Source of the DNA: a virus
Taxonomy: Duplodnaviria; Caudoviricetes
DNA: 54,616 nt
Virus record (IMG/VR): IMGVR_UViG_3300042448_002124
Span: 1-54,616 of that record
Direction: 5' to 3' (one strand)
Below the pieces are notes generated by a model. That model had not been told where the DNA came from. It searched no databases and saw only the letters and a program-made list of their open reading frames with translations. Within the stretch, counting starts at the first letter, position 1, and every line of letters begins with the position of its first letter. Shown in pieces: positions 32,355 through 38,771 of this stretch. The translations under genes and the position numbers were made by a program.

Positions 32355-33302
32355 ATGAGTTTAACTAAAGAAGAGTTCCACGCAAAAAAAGAGCAATGGT
32401 TAGAAAATGTGAAAACCAAAAAGGGAATCATTGCACAATTAGATGCAGATGGAATGTGTTCAGCATACATATTGAATAAAGTCACAGGATTACCAGTTGT
32501 CGGTATAACAGATTTGTATAACACAATATATGGTATTGGTAAAGGGGATAATGTTAGTGACTACGTGTTTGTTGATGTTGAGATTTTTGATGAAAGTGTC
32601 TACTCTATTGGTAATCATAATAATGTAACTAATGATGAGGTATTAACAGAGTTATTACAGAATAGATTATCTAATTGCTTAAATCCAAATTATCAATTCG
32701 GTGTTACAGTTACAGATTATCGTCAAAAATATCCTTACAGTACTTCATTATACTTAATGGAGTTGTTTGGCGATAGATTTGATATGAATGAAATGCTTTC
32801 AAATGAAAAAATTAAAACTTGTTTAATATTCTCTGATGGCATCTATAACAACGTGTGGAAATATAGGGCAAATTCAGAAGATTGGCAAAAGAAACTTTTT
32901 ACTAATCCAATCATCAACGAACAAATGTTAAATCCTCTTTTTGAAATAAAAGACAGATCAACATACGAAAGAACAATTTTAGATGACATTAAAAGAAATT
33001 TCAATAACTTTGACGCTAAAAGCAAATGCGATAAGAATGTGGAAACAATCGATGCGTTCACTAAAAGGAAATTGGAAAACATGTCAGCACCATTTACCGA
33101 CAGCGGATTTACCACCGAAGTTAATTTCGATAAAAAAATTACCCTAGATAGTAAAATATATAGTCCAAAATTTTATAATCCGATCCCTAGAGAATATCAT
33201 TGCGACCCAATTTTAATTTATGAGAACACGTTTACCATAAATTATATCTACCAAGACAGTATTTCGTTAACAAATATACCAACAGAAGACAAATATGTAT
33301 AA
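32355..33302 (+). CDS. DHH-superfamily phosphoesterase-like protein
   Basis: Motif I DADGMCSA, motif II VFVDV and NCLNPN present; the DHH position reads GNHN. Confidence 0.55.
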   Translation: MSLTKEEFHAKKEQWLENVKTKKGIIAQLDADGMCSAYILNKVTGLPVVGITDLYNTIYGIGKGDNVSDYVFVDVEIFDESVYSIGNHNNVTNDEVLTELLQNRLSNCLNPNYQFGVTVTDYRQKYPYSTSLYLMELFGDRFDMNEMLSNEKIKTCLIFSDGIYNNVWKYRANSEDWQKKLFTNPIINEQMLNPLFEIKDRSTYERTILDDIKRNFNNFDAKSKCDKNVETIDAFTKRKLENMSAPFTDSGFTTEVNFDKKITLDSKIYSPKFYNPIPREYHCDPILIYENTFTINYIYQDSISLTNIPTEDKYV

Positions 33303-35634
33303 TAACCCGTTTATTAAAGTTGAGTGGGAAGATGTTCCAGAAAACTTGACGCAAGAACGTATAAAAAGAGTAAAAACTTATTTTCAAACTAAGTATAACT
33401 CAACCAACGTTAAGATAGTTACTAAAGTGATTAGTAATTTATCTAACACAAAACTAAAATCACTAGAGGCGAGCGATAATATTTTAGATCCGCAATATCA
33501 GAAGAATCTTGTTAAAGATTTTATGAGTGAAAACGGTATTAACATAAAATGGGAATTAGTTAATCGATTAGACGATAAGGTAAATTCAGAAATTGATAAA
33601 CTAAATCAAAATAAAGTTAGATACAACAAATGGTTCATAAAGAAAGTTGAATTTTCTAATTTTCTTTCTTACGGTGAGAATAATGTGATTGAATTTACTG
33701 ATTTAGATGGCATCACTGTCATTGAATCTACCCCTAGAAATTTTGGTGGTAAATCAACTGCAACTGTTGACCTATTGATGTTCTTATTTTTTAATTCAAC
33801 AACAAAAACTAAAACGAATATTGAAATATTCAATAAGTTTTCTGATGCTGACGAGGTTAAGGTAAAAGGTGAAGTCATTATTGATGGCGATACTTACATA
33901 ATATCAAGAAACGTAACTAGAAAGAAAAGTAAATCAGGTGAATACACGGTAAAAAATGATTTAGAATTCTTTAAAAAAGCAGAAGACGGGGCTATCATTA
34001 ATTTATCTGGTGAACAAAGGAAAGAGACAGAAACACTAATTACTTCTGCTATAGGTACTCAAGAAGATTTCCTTTCAACAATTCTTACAACTGGATATAA
34101 TCTAGAAGAATTAATTGAAAGTAAACCAACAGCAAGAGGGCAAATCATTACAAAATTTTTAGGTTTAGAATCCCTTAAAAATAAAGAAGACATTGCTAAA
34201 GAAATGTATAGTGAATGGGGTAAGAAATTGATTTCAAATACAAACAATATTGTTGATCTTGAAAATCAAAATAATGTTGCGACAGAATCTATTGGAAATT
34301 CTAAAGATCAAGTTGAAGCATTAACAATCGCTTTAACCGGGTTTGAGGAAAAAGTAAAAAAGTTAAACGAAAGAAAAGAACATATTTTAACTTTAAAAAA
34401 TAACGATATTGATCGAGAATTAATCAACACAAATCCAACTTTACTTGAGAGAGAGATAAACGAAATTATTACTCAAAGAAACACTAGTCAAAAAAATGCT
34501 GACAGTGTTAATGTAACTGAACCGTCCAACTATTATCTTGAAGATGAACACAACCAATTGAAAGAGAAAATAAATCAATTGGTGGTAGAGAATCGTTTAG
34601 GTGAAAGAGAGAAAGCAGACAAAGAAAAGCACATCAAATTATTAGAAGAAGGTAAGATATGTCCTAAATGCAATAGACCACTAGACGAGGTTGACCACAC
34701 ATATGAGATTGAGGAAACTAAAAAGGAAATTGAGGAGATTAATAAGGATAGGGAAAACAACGATAAAGAACTTGAAGATTTAAAGAAACGATCTGACGCA
34801 TATGAAACCTTAAAAACTGAATTCGATACTTACGAAAGAAATAAACTTCGTAAAGCGAGATATGAATTAGAAGTTGAACAGAAGCAAGTTGAGATTAACA
34901 CAAAACAATCTAGATTAGACAATTATGAAAGGAATAAAAGTAAACTAGAAGAGAATCAAAAAATTGACGGAGAATTAATCACATTAAGAACACAAATAGA
35001 AACTGCTAGCGCCGATATTACAGTTACCAATAATAATATTAGTAAACATAACAATAATATTACTAATATGGAAGAAAAAATTGATACAAATAATAAGTTG
35101 ATAGAAAAGATAAGGGCAGAAGAAGAATATCAACAAGTGTTTAAAACATACTTAACAATTTTTGGTAAGAACGGGATTTCTAAAATTATTCTAAAGAATA
35201 TGATTCCACTACTTAATCAGGAATTGCATCGTTTACTATCTGATAGTTGTTATTTCACTCTTGAGTTAAACATTAATGATAAGAACGAGGTTGAGTTTAT
35301 TATGATCGATAATGAAACCAGGGTAATTAAACCCCTTAATGCTGGATCAGGTTACGAAAGAACAATATCCTCATTGGCATTGAGAAGCGTTTTAACAAAA
35401 GTGTCGTCATTACCTAAACCAAACATTGTGGTGATGGATGAAGTATTTGGAAAGATAGCAGACGAGAATTTGGAAATGGTAGGTGAATTTTTCAAGAAAA
35501 TCAAAAATTATTTTGAACATATCTTAGTAATATCACATAATCCTTTAATACGTAACTGGTCAGATAATATTATCATGGTTAAAAAAGATGATAATATATC
35601 CAGTATTGAATATGTGACGACCAAAATTTCTTAA
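33295..35634 (+). CDS. sbcC: SbcC/Rad50 (gp46-like) SMC-family ATPase
   Basis: NFLSYG, Walker A NFGGKST, coiled coil with a CPKC zinc hook, signature GSGYE, Walker B VVMDE and ISHN. Confidence 0.9.
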   Translation: MYNNPFIKVEWEDVPENLTQERIKRVKTYFQTKYNSTNVKIVTKVISNLSNTKLKSLEASDNILDPQYQKNLVKDFMSENGINIKWELVNRLDDKVNSEIDKLNQNKVRYNKWFIKKVEFSNFLSYGENNVIEFTDLDGITVIESTPRNFGGKSTATVDLLMFLFFNSTTKTKTNIEIFNKFSDADEVKVKGEVIIDGDTYIISRNVTRKKSKSGEYTVKNDLEFFKKAEDGAIINLSGEQRKETETLITSAIGTQEDFLSTILTTGYNLEELIESKPTARGQIITKFLGLESLKNKEDIAKEMYSEWGKKLISNTNNIVDLENQNNVATESIGNSKDQVEALTIALTGFEEKVKKLNERKEHILTLKNNDIDRELINTNPTLLEREINEIITQRNTSQKNADSVNVTEPSNYYLEDEHNQLKEKINQLVVENRLGEREKADKEKHIKLLEEGKICPKCNRPLDEVDHTYEIEETKKEIEEINKDRENNDKELEDLKKRSDAYETLKTEFDTYERNKLRKARYELEVEQKQVEINTKQSRLDNYERNKSKLEENQKIDGELITLRTQIETASADITVTNNNISKHNNNITNMEEKIDTNNKLIEKIRAEEEYQQVFKTYLTIFGKNGISKIILKNMIPLLNQELHRLLSDSCYFTLELNINDKNEVEFIMIDNETRVIKPLNAGSGYERTISSLALRSVLTKVSSLPKPNIVVMDEVFGKIADENLEMVGEFFKKIKNYFEHILVISHNPLIRNWSDNIIMVKKDDNISSIEYVTTKIS

Positions 35635-35671: not shown

Positions 35672-36367
35672 ATGACACCAAAGGAATACAATGGCTTCGG
35701 CCTTTTCGCAAAAAGCATGGGTATTAGTTCTTCTAAGATTGATTATTTTAGTAAACATTTAGAATCATACCTAGGCCTTAAAAGTAGTTTAACGCCCTAT
35801 GTTCTTGAAGAAAGACAAATGAATGTAACACAGATTGATGTGTTCAGTAGATTAATGATGGAACGCATTATATGGGTAGCCGGAGAGGTAAATGATAATA
35901 TGTCAGTTATCACACAGGCGCAACTCATGTTTTTAGATAGTTTGGACAACACAGATATTACAATGCACATCGATAGTCCTGGCGGAAGCGTTAAATCTGG
36001 GTTATCAATGGTAGATGTTATGGATTACATCAGTTCAGACATTAGAACAATCAATACTGGTATGGCAGCATCTATGGGTTCTATTTTACTAGGCGCTGGC
36101 GCAAAAGGAAAAAGAGGATCACTTAGATTTTCTAGAACAATGTTACACCAAAGTTCAGGTGGATTCCAAGGAAACATCCAAGATGCTAAAATTGATATGA
36201 TTGAGTGGGAGAAAATCAATAATACTTTATTTGAATTATTGGGCGGCTATTGTGGTAAAGATGCTGAAGTCGTTAAACAGGACGCATCAAGAGATTTATG
36301 GTTATCATCTGAAGATGCGTTGGCTTACGGAATCATTGATGAAATTGTAACCAAAAAGAAGAAATAA
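35672..36367 (+). CDS. clpP: ATP-dependent Clp protease proteolytic subunit
   Basis: DVFSRLMMERII, IDSPGGSV, catalytic AASMGS, MLHQ and RD motifs. Confidence 0.95.
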   Translation: MTPKEYNGFGLFAKSMGISSSKIDYFSKHLESYLGLKSSLTPYVLEERQMNVTQIDVFSRLMMERIIWVAGEVNDNMSVITQAQLMFLDSLDNTDITMHIDSPGGSVKSGLSMVDVMDYISSDIRTINTGMAASMGSILLGAGAKGKRGSLRFSRTMLHQSSGGFQGNIQDAKIDMIEWEKINNTLFELLGGYCGKDAEVVKQDASRDLWLSSEDALAYGIIDEIVTKKKK

Positions 36368-36395
36368 GTTTTAGGGTTTGTAAATAAATAAAATT

Positions 36396-36424
36396 GGGAG
36401 GTGTCTTTACACTTCCCTTTTTTT
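36396..36424 (+). terminator. Intrinsic terminator after clpP
   Basis: GGGAGGTGT-cttt-ACACTTCCC plus T7. Confidence 0.85.
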
Positions 36425-36447
36425 ATTTCTTCCTATATATTTATTCC

Positions 36448-36521
36448 TAGACCTTGTGGTTGAATCGGAAGTGTCCTAGAGACATTTGAGTTGGAATTGA
36501 TACCAACGAATTCGGGTTCAA
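36448..36521 (+). ncRNA. Structured 5' leader (three-way junction) plus the 5' arm of a long-range stem
   Basis: P1 36460-70/36511-21, P2 36471-75/36481-85, P3 36490-94/36503-07 flanked by tandem GA; 36448-62 pairs with 37366-80. Confidence 0.6.
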
Positions 36522-36541
36522 ATACAAAAAAATATAAGGAA

Positions 36542-37357
36542 ATGAACAGAAGAATTTCAGTTAACACAACTGGTCTTGCTGTACCACAATCTTTCATTAC
36601 CAAAGGTAAACAAAGATTAAAACAGCACGTAGACACCGTATATCTTAATAACGGTGATGAGTTCGAAATCGAACTTTTTAATCCAACAAGCAATAAAGTT
36701 TTAGCAAAAATCGAGATGAATGGTAATCCCATTGGTAATGGTATCATACTTCGTCCTGGTGAACGCATCTTCCTCGAAAGGTATCTTGATGAGGCAAAGA
36801 AGTTTTTATTTGAAACATATGTTGTAAACGGGGATAATCAAGAAGTGCAAGATGCTATTGCTAATAATGGTGATGTAGTTGTTAAATTCTATAATGAAAC
36901 GCCCCCACCGACATATTATAACGGTGGTTCGGGAACAGTAACCATTGGCAACCCTGTTTGGGCCAATTATCCATATACCTATACAACGCACAATACGTTA
37001 GGTAACACATCTTTTACCACAACATCGACAAATACAAACACGTTTTACAACACATCTTTAACAAGTGGAACATTTAATACCTCAAATACGTTCTTAAATA
37101 ACCCTAACAGGGTTAAAAAATCGGAAAGACAAATTGAGACAGGTAGAGTTGAAAAGGGTTCCGATTCTAACCAATCTTTTACGTACGATAGTACATCTTT
37201 TAATAGTTGGGCATCTAATACAAATTGGTGGAAAATTAAACCTAAATCAACCCAATTGGTAACAATGGAGGATTTGGTTACATATTGTACTGAATGTGGC
37301 GGTAAAAGGAAAAAAGACACATATAAGTTCTGTCCACATTGCGGAACAAAATTCTAA
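36542..37357 (+). CDS. Uncharacterised protein: beta-sandwich-like N-domain, T/N/S-rich linker, C-terminal zinc ribbon
   Basis: ATG 36542 preceded by AAGGA; ends CTECG...KFCPHCGTKF. The TTG start at 36491 lies inside the folded leader. Confidence 0.8.
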   Translation: MNRRISVNTTGLAVPQSFITKGKQRLKQHVDTVYLNNGDEFEIELFNPTSNKVLAKIEMNGNPIGNGIILRPGERIFLERYLDEAKKFLFETYVVNGDNQEVQDAIANNGDVVVKFYNETPPPTYYNGGSGTVTIGNPVWANYPYTYTTHNTLGNTSFTTTSTNTNTFYNTSLTSGTFNTSNTFLNNPNRVKKSERQIETGRVEKGSDSNQSFTYDSTSFNSWASNTNWWKIKPKSTQLVTMEDLVTYCTECGGKRKKDTYKFCPHCGTKF

Positions 37358-37382
37358 TAATAAACTAATCACAAGGTCTACG

Positions 37383-37407
37383 CGGGGTACTTTTTGTACC
37401 CCGTTTG
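37383..37407 (+). terminator. Intrinsic terminator after the Zn-ribbon gene
   Basis: CGGGGTAC-ttttt-GTACCCCG then TTTG, immediately followed by the next TATTTAT. Confidence 0.75.
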
Positions 37408-37428: not shown

Positions 37429-37773
37429 ATGAAGATCAATAAAACGAATATACTGCTTGTTATTGTCATTATTTTGGCTGGATATAGTATTTTCCAGGGA
37501 GATAAGATAAGAACCGATGTAGCGGGTTATAATAACAAAATTGACTCAATTCAGAATGAGATCGATTCGGTAGAAATGTTAAACACTAAATTAAGTGAAC
37601 AAATTGGCGTTATCGACCAAGAAATCGATAAAGTAGACGGAAATATAAATAATGTTACAAAAAACATAACAATCATCAAAAACCAAACACATGAAAAAAT
37701 TGATTCTGTTAATAACTATAATTTTTCTGACCTCGAAAAGTTTTTCTCAGACCGTTACAAAGACCAATATTGA
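37429..37773 (+). CDS. Membrane-anchored coiled-coil protein (i-spanin-like candidate)
   Basis: N-terminal TM (ILLVIVIILAGYSIF) then a heptad coiled coil; overlaps the next gene by 83 nt. Confidence 0.55.
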   Translation: MKINKTNILLVIVIILAGYSIFQGDKIRTDVAGYNNKIDSIQNEIDSVEMLNTKLSEQIGVIDQEIDKVDGNINNVTKNITIIKNQTHEKIDSVNNYNFSDLEKFFSDRYKDQY

Positions 37774-38107
37774 TACTATAGTACCATTAAAGGTACCAGT
37801 AGCAAAAATGGTAATTAAGGACTTAATTAAGGGTGATGGCGCTCAGATCGAGATCCTGGAACTTAATAAGGTAATATCCCTTAAAGACGATCAAATCACT
37901 CTTTTTAAACAAAAAGACACGCTAAAAGATCAAAAAATAGGTAATTTGGAGTTAATTATCACAAAAAAAGACCAACAATTTGATTTAGAGAGAGCAAAAT
38001 CCGAGAGTTTATTCAAAGAACTTAAATCACAAAAAAGAAAGACATTCTTATATAAAGTTGGTTCATTTGTGGGAATAGTTGCCACAACAATGTTATTATT
38101 AAAATAG
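37691..38107 (+). CDS. Secreted/envelope coiled-coil protein with signal peptide and C-terminal hydrophobic helix
   Basis: MKKLILLITIIFLTSKSFS-QT signal peptide with Gln at +1; C-terminal VGSFVGIVATTMLLLK. Confidence 0.6.
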   Translation: MKKLILLITIIFLTSKSFSQTVTKTNIDTIVPLKVPVAKMVIKDLIKGDGAQIEILELNKVISLKDDQITLFKQKDTLKDQKIGNLELIITKKDQQFDLERAKSESLFKELKSQKRKTFLYKVGSFVGIVATTMLLLK

Positions 38108-38108
38108 A

Positions 38109-38771
38109 ATGAAGAAATATCTAGATATTAGAAATGTTATCATCGTTATTCTTCTATTGTTGGCTCTAGTTGAGTTCCTAAACCCTAGAGGGTTCATGCC
38201 TGGTAGAACCAAATTAATGACACAAATTGATTCAATACCTTACCCAGTACACGACACAATTCCATTTGAAACGGAGATTGAAGTACCCGTTGAGATCGAG
38301 GTTGAAGTACCAGTGGATAGACCTGTGGAAGTGAGAGTCGAAGTTGAAAAACCAGTGGATACTGCAGCAATTTTAAAAATGTTTGCCGAAAACAAACAAA
38401 CTAAAAAAGATGTTTTAGAATTACCTAACAACATAGGTACGGTGACGGTTTTTGATACAATATCTAATAACAGGATATTGGGTAGATCATTTACCAGTAA
38501 GGTAAAGAAGCAAATCGTAAAAGACACCATTTATACCCCAGTACCTCCAAAACGTTTATATTACATTGGATTTGATGCTAAATTTGATAAACCTAATATG
38601 ATAAACTTATTAGGCGTTAGTATGATGATTAAAACAAAGGACGAAAAAATCTATAAATTCGGTGTTGGTGTGCAAAACATTGTAGGTCCAGACGGAGTAA
38701 ACGGGTCTTTAGTACCAAATATTGGTGGAGGAGTTTACTGGAAAATTAATCTTCGAAAGGGTAGTAAGTAA
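38109..38771 (+). CDS. Envelope protein with N-terminal TM and C-terminal amphipathic beta strands (spanin-like candidate)
   Basis: VIIVILLLLALV anchor, EVPV repeats, terminal NIGGGVYWKINL strand. Confidence 0.55.
   Translation: MKKYLDIRNVIIVILLLLALVEFLNPRGFMPGRTKLMTQIDSIPYPVHDTIPFETEIEVPVEIEVEVPVDRPVEVRVEVEKPVDTAAILKMFAENKQTKKDVLELPNNIGTVTVFDTISNNRILGRSFTSKVKKQIVKDTIYTPVPPKRLYYIGFDAKFDKPNMINLLGVSMMIKTKDEKIYKFGVGVQNIVGPDGVNGSLVPNIGGGVYWKINLRKGSK

Follow-up and report, generated by a model that had tools for sequence, protein, structure and literature searches.

A conserved, folded leader RNA, strictly tied to one gene, lies in front of the start codon of a zinc-ribbon protein gene in a viral genome fragment, and constitutes a new, well-supported family of structured leader RNAs of huge phages. 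The stretch of DNA analyzed, hereafter called the window, is a 54.6-kb virus record fragment (54,616 nucleotides) with an estimated completeness of 16%. Every long open reading frame (ORF) of the window is located on the + strand, and DNA of the window is present in lake-water metagenome runs. An initial annotation, made from the letters alone, had proposed a compact three-way-junction RNA with tandem G-A pairs at positions 36460-36541, in the leader of the zinc-ribbon gene.

The gene directly upstream of the leader (35672-36367) encodes a ClpP-like protease (Pfam CLP_protease, E 1e-54; PHROG annotation 'head maturation protease') and is itself preceded by a gene for an SbcC-like ATPase (33295-35634; PHROG 77, E 4e-48). 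A terminator scan identified an intrinsic terminator of the ClpP-like gene on the + strand at 36396-36417, a stem-loop followed by a T run that ends the preceding transcription unit. The zinc-ribbon gene extends from the ATG at 36542 to 37357 on the + strand and encodes a protein of 271 amino acids; a further + strand intrinsic terminator was found 3' of it by the same scan, at 37382-37404. Together with the promoter-like box described below, promoter, leader, zinc-ribbon gene and terminator form a single self-contained, monocistronic unit, and among relatives the gene upstream of the leader varies from locus to locus. Past the terminator of the zinc-ribbon gene, at 37429-38771, are three small ORFs with N-terminal hydrophobic segments, one of which has a coiled-coil region and a weak Rz-like spanin match (E 0.0024); these ORFs may form a lysis or membrane module. 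ARAGORN detected no tRNA or tmRNA gene and recognized no cloverleaf in the window.

Reading of the sequence located the helices P1, P2 and P3, the GA dinucleotides, the A-rich linker, the AAGGA and the ATG all where the initial annotation had placed them, and the minimum-energy fold of 36460-36541 (-17.0 kcal/mol) is exactly the three-way junction that had been claimed. The 5' strand of P1 (36460-36470, + strand) is paired at 10 of 11 positions with the 3' strand (36511-36521, + strand), a pairing present in both the minimum-energy fold and RNAalifold and supported by covariation. With zero unpaired bases in between, P1 is followed by the P2 hairpin GUGUC-CUAGA-GACAU (36471-36485, + strand; stem 36471-36475/36481-36485), also present in both the minimum-energy fold and RNAalifold. 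The junction strand J2/3 reads UUGA (36486-36489, + strand; consensus U-N-G-A) and leads into the P3 hairpin, GUUGG-AAUUGAUA-CCAAC (36490-36507, + strand; stem 36490-36494/36503-36507). The strand that returns to P1, J3/1, reads GAA (36508-36510, + strand; consensus R-A-A), and an A-rich single-stranded linker (36522-36532, + strand) separates P1 from the 3' strand of an outer helix, P0. The internal mismatch of P1 is a G.G at 36467/36514; relatives keep one mismatch, mostly G.G, the position of which differs between the 5'-strand variants GUCG and UCGG opposite CGGG, and in some leader classes P1 is fully paired, with no mismatch. The fold energy of 36460-36541 corresponds to a z-score of -1.86, with 9 of 200 shuffles folding equally well; the single sequence is therefore weakly better than chance, and it is the relatives that decide.

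A first protein search yielded 37 related viral loci with 44-84% identity, which carried 26 distinct leaders. Across the 37 loci, the approximately 95 nt that precede the ATG hardly vary, in contrast to the upstream neighbors, the initial codons and the protein. RNAalifold analysis of the 26 distinct leaders recovered P1, P2 and P3 and added the outer helix P0. In this set 99.3% of cells were paired, against 26-45% when the 3' partners were slid, seven pairs were changed on both sides, and none of 500 shuffles was as good. A covariance model was built from the 26 leaders and then run on loci found by protein: a protein-profile search returned 457 viral contigs with a relative, and the best 80 of the 457 (45-84% identity) were kept. 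Each of the 80 loci showed exactly one match; all matches were on the + strand, ended at the ATG and scored 69-116 bits. Both the proposed cis element in the leader of the zinc-ribbon gene, on the + strand, and the conservation of its fold among homologous leaders, for which a de novo covariance model had been suggested as a check, are thus borne out at 80 of 80 protein-found loci.

The 80 loci, chosen by protein alone, provided a second set of 54 distinct leaders. Here 98.1% of cells were paired, compared with 29-45% when the 3' partners were slid by 1-3 columns. Twelve pairs were doubly changed, seven of the nine modelled pairs in P1, four of five in P2 and one of seven in P0. None of 500 shuffles matched the observed percentage paired, the covariation score or the number of doubly changed cells; doubly changed pairs were matched by 2 of 500 shuffles and further pair types by 5 of 500. 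Within the set, P2 cells were 99.6% paired, and P3 was 100% paired and nearly invariant. The GA of J2/3 (36488-36489) was kept in all 54 distinct protein-chosen leaders shown. Of the features named in the initial annotation, the three-way junction is conserved, as are the GA/RA dinucleotides beside it. Columns 23-47 formed a G-U pair in 47 of the 54 leaders and columns 8-106 in 52 of the 54; read on the opposite strand, such G-U pairs become A-C mismatches, and the structure therefore belongs to the + strand RNA.

The association with the zinc-ribbon gene was also seen from the side of the DNA. With a gene-blind DNA pattern, all 128 downstream ORFs of at least 30 amino acids (128/128) were homologues of the zinc-ribbon gene. 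For the 20-base pattern, 28 listed matches had no homologous ORF; most of these looked like chance matches in coding DNA, and the rest were real elements with other spacing or clipped by a contig end. A looser pattern, with 14 bases specified, returned at least 119 stretches, mostly chance matches. Near-complete genomes (95-100%; 316, 324 and 405 kb) each carried one significant copy of the leader (3 of 3). In a pattern scan of bacterial and archaeal genome contigs, one covariance-model match was observed among the at least 120 stretches listed (locus L391, 1422-1518; 75.6 bits), on a 13-kb contig of a metagenome-assembled genome labelled 'bacterium'. This is probably a phage contig binned with that genome, and the scan tells little about hosts. 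A blastn search against phage records matched the ClpP part and nothing else.

Rfam 15, run at the gathering score with the riboswitch aptamer models included, gave no match in the whole window. In E-value mode over 36300-36700 (E <= 10), eight weak rows were returned, all far below the gathering score: six fell in the region of the upstream terminator, one fell within the ORF and one (RUF1, 13.6 bits, E 3.9) spanned the whole region. The L20_leader, GibS and patAB rows correspond to the terminator hairpin at 36396-36417 and not to the leader. The same mode applied at E <= 1 to eight distant leaders described below (L268-L275) returned nothing on the leaders. The Rfam comparison that the initial annotation had proposed thus places the leader outside the known families. 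It is also undescribed in the literature found, in a search with supplementary files outside its scope.

A promoter-like box of the -7/-10 type, TATATTTAT, is located at 36436-36444 on the + strand and corresponds to a TATAyTTAT common to the upstream regions of 79 distinct loci, mostly with TTTACA approximately 17-19 nt before the box. From this box we infer a transcription start at about 36449-36451, 1-3 nt before CCUUGU. Other exact TATATTTAT boxes occur on the + strand at 2834, 12800, 28806 and 44565, with the next ATG 4, 11, 26 and 5 nt away, respectively, and several genes therefore look leaderless or nearly so. The distance from TATATTTAT to the ATG of the zinc-ribbon gene is 97 nt, compared with 4-26 nt elsewhere in the window, in agreement with the earlier remark that so long a leader is unusual in this genome. 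The leader accordingly lies between the promoter-like box and the start codon on the sense strand, with 80 of 80 matches ending at the ATG and a putative 5' end at the predicted start. Metatranscriptome contigs of relatives from four runs bridge the leader and the ORF, and one RNA-library contig includes promoter letters upstream, both observations for which DNA carry-over is possible. The RNA-library contigs carry no start, end or strand information and the upstream gene has no cover; they weakly support the presence of the leader on an mRNA.

The outer helix P0 was identified by RNAalifold. Its 5' strand is the anti-Shine-Dalgarno-like CCUUGUG (36452-36458, + strand), at the putative 5' end of the mRNA, and its 3' strand is UAUAAGG (36533-36539, + strand), which shares bases with the Shine-Dalgarno-like AAGGA (36536-36540); this motif lies 1 nt upstream of the ATG at 36542. 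P0 is thus a helix covering the Shine-Dalgarno and start region. This result modifies the initial annotation in two respects. The structured part at 36460-36541 stands, whereas the conserved element starts earlier, at about 36449-36452. Bases 36460-36462 had been assigned to both P1 and a long-range stem, by which the helices were proposed to stack or switch, and the helix found, 36452-36458/36533-36539, involves no such sharing. P0 alone was 97.1% paired among the 54 leaders, compared with 36-54% when slid, and ACCUUGU was invariant in the 26 distinct leaders (26/26) of the first protein-found set. One of the seven P0 pairs covaries because P0 is almost invariant, and this conservation could have another cause. 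The innermost pair, columns 10-104, is GU in 26 leaders, UA in 12 and GC in 6, and is unpaired in 10.

The same 5' bases have an alternative register, in which UUGUG (36454-36458) pairs with UACAA (36523-36527) on the + strand, extending P1 and freeing UAUAAGG. Columns 10-88 and 9-89 of this register were paired in all 54 leaders, including 12 double changes. In thermodynamic ensembles the probability of P0 exceeded 0.5 in 42 of the 80 leaders, with a median of 0.53. For the window it was 0.42, the minimum-energy form being the P1 extension with the Shine-Dalgarno-like sequence free, and the predicted occupancy of P0 in the leader class of the window was about 0.4-0.5. Given two pairing registers for the same 5' bases, the leader is read here as a two-register control element.

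Shine-Dalgarno-like 4-mers were found before 2 of the 43 + strand ORF starts in the window, compared with 17% of random 15-mers, and AAGGA at 36536-36540 is the sole well-placed motif of this type among the 43 starts. The upstream regions of the window ORFs are A/T-rich. This scarcity fits a host with ribosomes that do not use Shine-Dalgarno sequences. Genes for ribosomal protein bS21, scoring above the Pfam cut-off, were detected in two near-complete relatives of 324 kb (L360; G002:C1:83969-84118; 44.5 bits) and 316 kb (L361; G001:C1:17858-18016; 40.6 bits); neither the 405-kb relative nor the window fragment showed one. One study reports that bS21-encoding phages of up to 331 kb infect freshwater Bacteroidetes (PMC9723584), and Bacteroidetes are the likely hosts here. 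Ribosomes of Bacteroidia are described in two further papers (PMC7797042, PMC9976891) as normally not recognizing Shine-Dalgarno sequences. Insofar as Bacteroidetes ribosomes normally ignore such sequences, as these papers indicate, 'SD sequestration' may misdescribe the P0 pairing.

With tblastn, members of the protein family sharing 33-49% identity were detected in 15 records of Lak megaphages, for which the host is given as Prevotella, and in seven uncultured huge-phage records of 462-735 kb. Eight distant loci (L268-L275) were scanned with the covariance model. Four were matched just before the gene (E 2e-5, 1e-4, 3e-3 and 0.24); the other four (L271-L274) were within noise, and for these the shared architecture is read from minimum-energy folds alone. 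In the minimum-energy folds of all eight distant leaders P1 encloses P2 and P3 with no base between P1 and P2, J2/3 ends in GA, and J3/1 consists of 2-3 purines, being GAA in L268, L271 and L275. All three helices, P3 included, differ in sequence from those of the window. The same architecture in eight distant folds marks the junction as an old feature that is widely distributed in this phage lineage. In L268 the leader pairs its 5' end with the bases before the ATG through AUCUU:GAGAU, and in L269 through GGUCUC:GAGAUU; no clear P0 equivalent was seen in the folds of L270-L275, which include the Lak phages. What all members conserve is therefore the junction and not the occlusion, and the outer helix is predicted in many members, not demonstrably in all. 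A search with the L269 protein returned three loci, of which L483 has the same design and keeps CCUU...AAGG and L484 has an uncertain start codon. In two Lak leaders (L271, 1377-1494; L272, 1313-1440) an extra hairpin, in place of a P0 equivalent, follows the three-way junction and precedes the start codon. The corresponding Lak ORFs contain in-frame TAG, as they would if TAG encodes a residue in these phages.

The N-terminal domain of the 271-residue protein is rich in beta structure and is followed by a variable linker rich in N, T and S, by an ETGRVEKGS...WKIKP block and, at the C-terminus, by a zinc ribbon of the form CxxC-x10-CxxC. Pfam returned weak zinc-ribbon matches and nothing else, and PHROGs a single weak match at the zinc-ribbon end to a family of unknown function (E 0.0096). 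PADLOC gave no match, a sequence profile search of the PDB gave nothing below E 0.35, and a search of the Atlas returned viral 'hypothetical protein' clusters only. The structure predicted with AlphaFold2 had a pLDDT of 56.9. Its best Foldseek match had an E of 0.017, the VIA Z-scores were at most 6.9, and the folds matched were generic Ig-like or MSP sandwiches. On the strength of these weak fold matches, the protein is predicted to be an Ig-like beta sandwich followed by a variable linker and a zinc ribbon. Nothing in the predicted model appears to speak for or against RNA binding; the fold is uninformative in this respect.

We favor, with moderate confidence, a function of the leader as a cis-acting translational control element of the zinc-ribbon gene. 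Transcription from the TATAyTTAT-type promoter would begin 1-3 nt before CCUUGU, and the first RNA bases, CCUUGUG, would pair with UAUAAGG directly before the start codon to form P0. P0 would close over a rigid three-way junction with P1 stacked on P2 and with P3 held between U-N-G-A and R-A-A. In this closed form the sole Shine-Dalgarno-like sequence and the pre-start region would be occluded and the A-rich linker would bulge out single-stranded, while in the open form the alternative register UUGUG:UACAA, next to P1, would free UAUAAGG. Because the two forms are close in energy, a factor that recognizes the P3 hairpin and the junction could shift the balance between them, and binding of such a factor would set the proportion of occluded and open RNA, and hence the rate of translation. 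The postulated effector is most likely a protein, and the product of the zinc-ribbon gene itself is one candidate among others. The effect on translation is a prediction from the sequences compared here.

Several known systems resemble parts of this design. Autogenous translational operators, known from phage and ribosomal-protein mRNAs, include the T4 gene 32 leader and the three-way-junction mimic of S15. The present leader has in common with them a structured mRNA 5' end followed by an A-rich unstructured stretch into the ribosome-binding site; it has no sequence or Rfam relation to these operators, and nucleic-acid binding by the encoded protein is a candidate property. The initial annotation had also suggested a k-junction-like element. 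K-turns and k-junctions contain G.A and A.G pairs beside a non-canonical helix and a three-nucleotide bulge, and form a tight kink; k-junctions are said to occur in TPP riboswitches and to have been described by Lilley's laboratory. The leader sequence would permit G.A and A.G (or A.A) pairs extending P3, with P2 as the flanking helix and P1, the third helix, exiting from the non-bulged strand. The bulge length does not fit a k-junction, with 2 nt (U, N) and not 3 once the closing pair of P2 forms. This pair (columns 23-47) is standard in 54 of 54 leaders and leaves 2 nt before the GA; in L268 and L269 1 nt is left.

A further parallel is the rpsU (bS21) gene of Flavobacteriia, which is under Shine-Dalgarno-dependent control according to PMC9976891. 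Both cases involve a rare Shine-Dalgarno-like sequence where other genes have none, and the phage relatives encode bS21; the difference is that the Shine-Dalgarno-like sequence of the leader is paired to the 5' end of its own mRNA across the junction. A speculative reading, with a low chance of being correct, sees in the leader an RNA sensor of a new class, specific to huge phages of Bacteroidetes. The invariant junction and P3 would bind a ligand or a ribosome-associated factor and, together with the self-paired Shine-Dalgarno-like sequence, make translation track the state of the host ribosome, for example whether bS21 of the host or the phage holds its anti-Shine-Dalgarno sequence or leaves it free. 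If this were true, expression of the zinc-ribbon gene would be timed within the infection cycle.

The features that suggest control could also belong to a constitutive structural leader with no switch, in which the paired 5' end and the compact junction would protect the mRNA from 5'-end-dependent decay or, in a variant, the A-rich loop would serve as a ribosome standby site for stable, efficient expression. We consider these two forms, taken jointly, rather unlikely, although to be reckoned with: no more than about 3 nt separate the predicted start from the paired 5' end, the unit is monocistronic with its own terminator, there is no known effector, and the RNA-library contigs over the gene in four runs are weakly in favor. 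A stabilizing hairpin, however, needs neither a near-invariant P3 nor an invariant U-N-G-A/R-A-A junction, two near-isoenergetic registers resemble a toggle, and pairing to the pre-start bases across proteins of 45-84% identity would be left unexplained. A toggle operated by a small molecule or ion bound at the junction, shifting the RNA between the P0-occluded and the open register, would make the leader a new riboswitch class. That is decidedly improbable. The invariant junction nucleotides, the nearly invariant P3, the adjacent helix occluding the ribosome-binding site, the two alternative pairings of the same 5' bases and the lack of a match to any known Rfam class are what such a riboswitch would show, but some seven conserved unpaired junction nucleotides with no linker between P1 and P2 leave a very small pocket, and the regulated gene has no metabolic annotation that suggests a ligand. 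Moreover, both registers are compatible with the folded junction, and ligand binding therefore has no obvious lever.

Cleavage could in principle take the place of a toggle, with a hammerhead-related self-cleaving ribozyme removing the 5' anti-Shine-Dalgarno strand and so activating translation. In hammerhead ribozymes the core between stems I and II is a conserved CUGANGA, and the residue at the cleavage site is unpaired. The leader shares with the type III hammerhead its three helices around one junction with P1 open, P2, P3 and P1 taking the places of stems I, II and III, respectively, and it has GA 5' and RAA 3' of the middle hairpin, like the tandem G.A region beside stem II; the GA before P3 and the RAA after it presumably occupy the positions of hammerhead G8-A9 and G12-A13-A14. 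It differs in the core and at the cleavage site. As the initial annotation had noted, the topology is hammerhead-like with no CUGANGA: J2/3 is U-N-G-A in the 54 distinct leaders shown, a U or a variable base stands where the hammerhead has its essential G5 and A6, and P1 passes into P2 with nothing unpaired at the cleavage position. No Rfam ribozyme model matches the leader, either in the window (E <= 10) or at the distant loci L268-L275 (E <= 1). Identification of the leader as a hammerhead ribozyme was rejected on these grounds, and a hammerhead-related activity is very improbable. Scarcely credible is the reading that the conservation is not that of an RNA and reflects a coding extension from TTG 36491, part of an antisense ORF (36433-36768) or a site at the DNA level. 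The in-frame TTG 36491 and the 111-residue antisense ORF do exist in the window, but the compensatory variation of the helices includes strand-specific G-U pairs, and the distance from CCTTGT to the ATG is 92, 93, 94, 95 or 96 nt among close relatives. The indels that change this length are in the P2 loop, in the A run and just before the ATG; as they are not multiples of three, neither the TTG 36491 frame nor the antisense frame is kept, and both coding readings were rejected. Translation from TTG 36491 through the element, which the initial annotation had named as a possible refutation, fails for the same reason, one-base indels between P1 and the ATG breaking the frame.

Huge phages, among them the Lak megaphages and the bS21-encoding phages of lakes, are known almost solely from metagenomes, and their gene regulation is little understood. 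The natural variation of the leader suffices to define a covariance model, and the leader, tied to one conserved gene, is a candidate new Rfam family. It places a good Shine-Dalgarno-like sequence, unique in a window poor in such sequences, in a pairing with the 5' end of its own mRNA, in phages of likely hosts with ribosomes that normally ignore Shine-Dalgarno sequences. As judged from comparison of the leaders, this RNA of huge phages of lake and gut bacteria probably controls translation by hiding the ribosome-binding site. If the leader is a switch, it would offer a simple entry point into translational control in huge phages.
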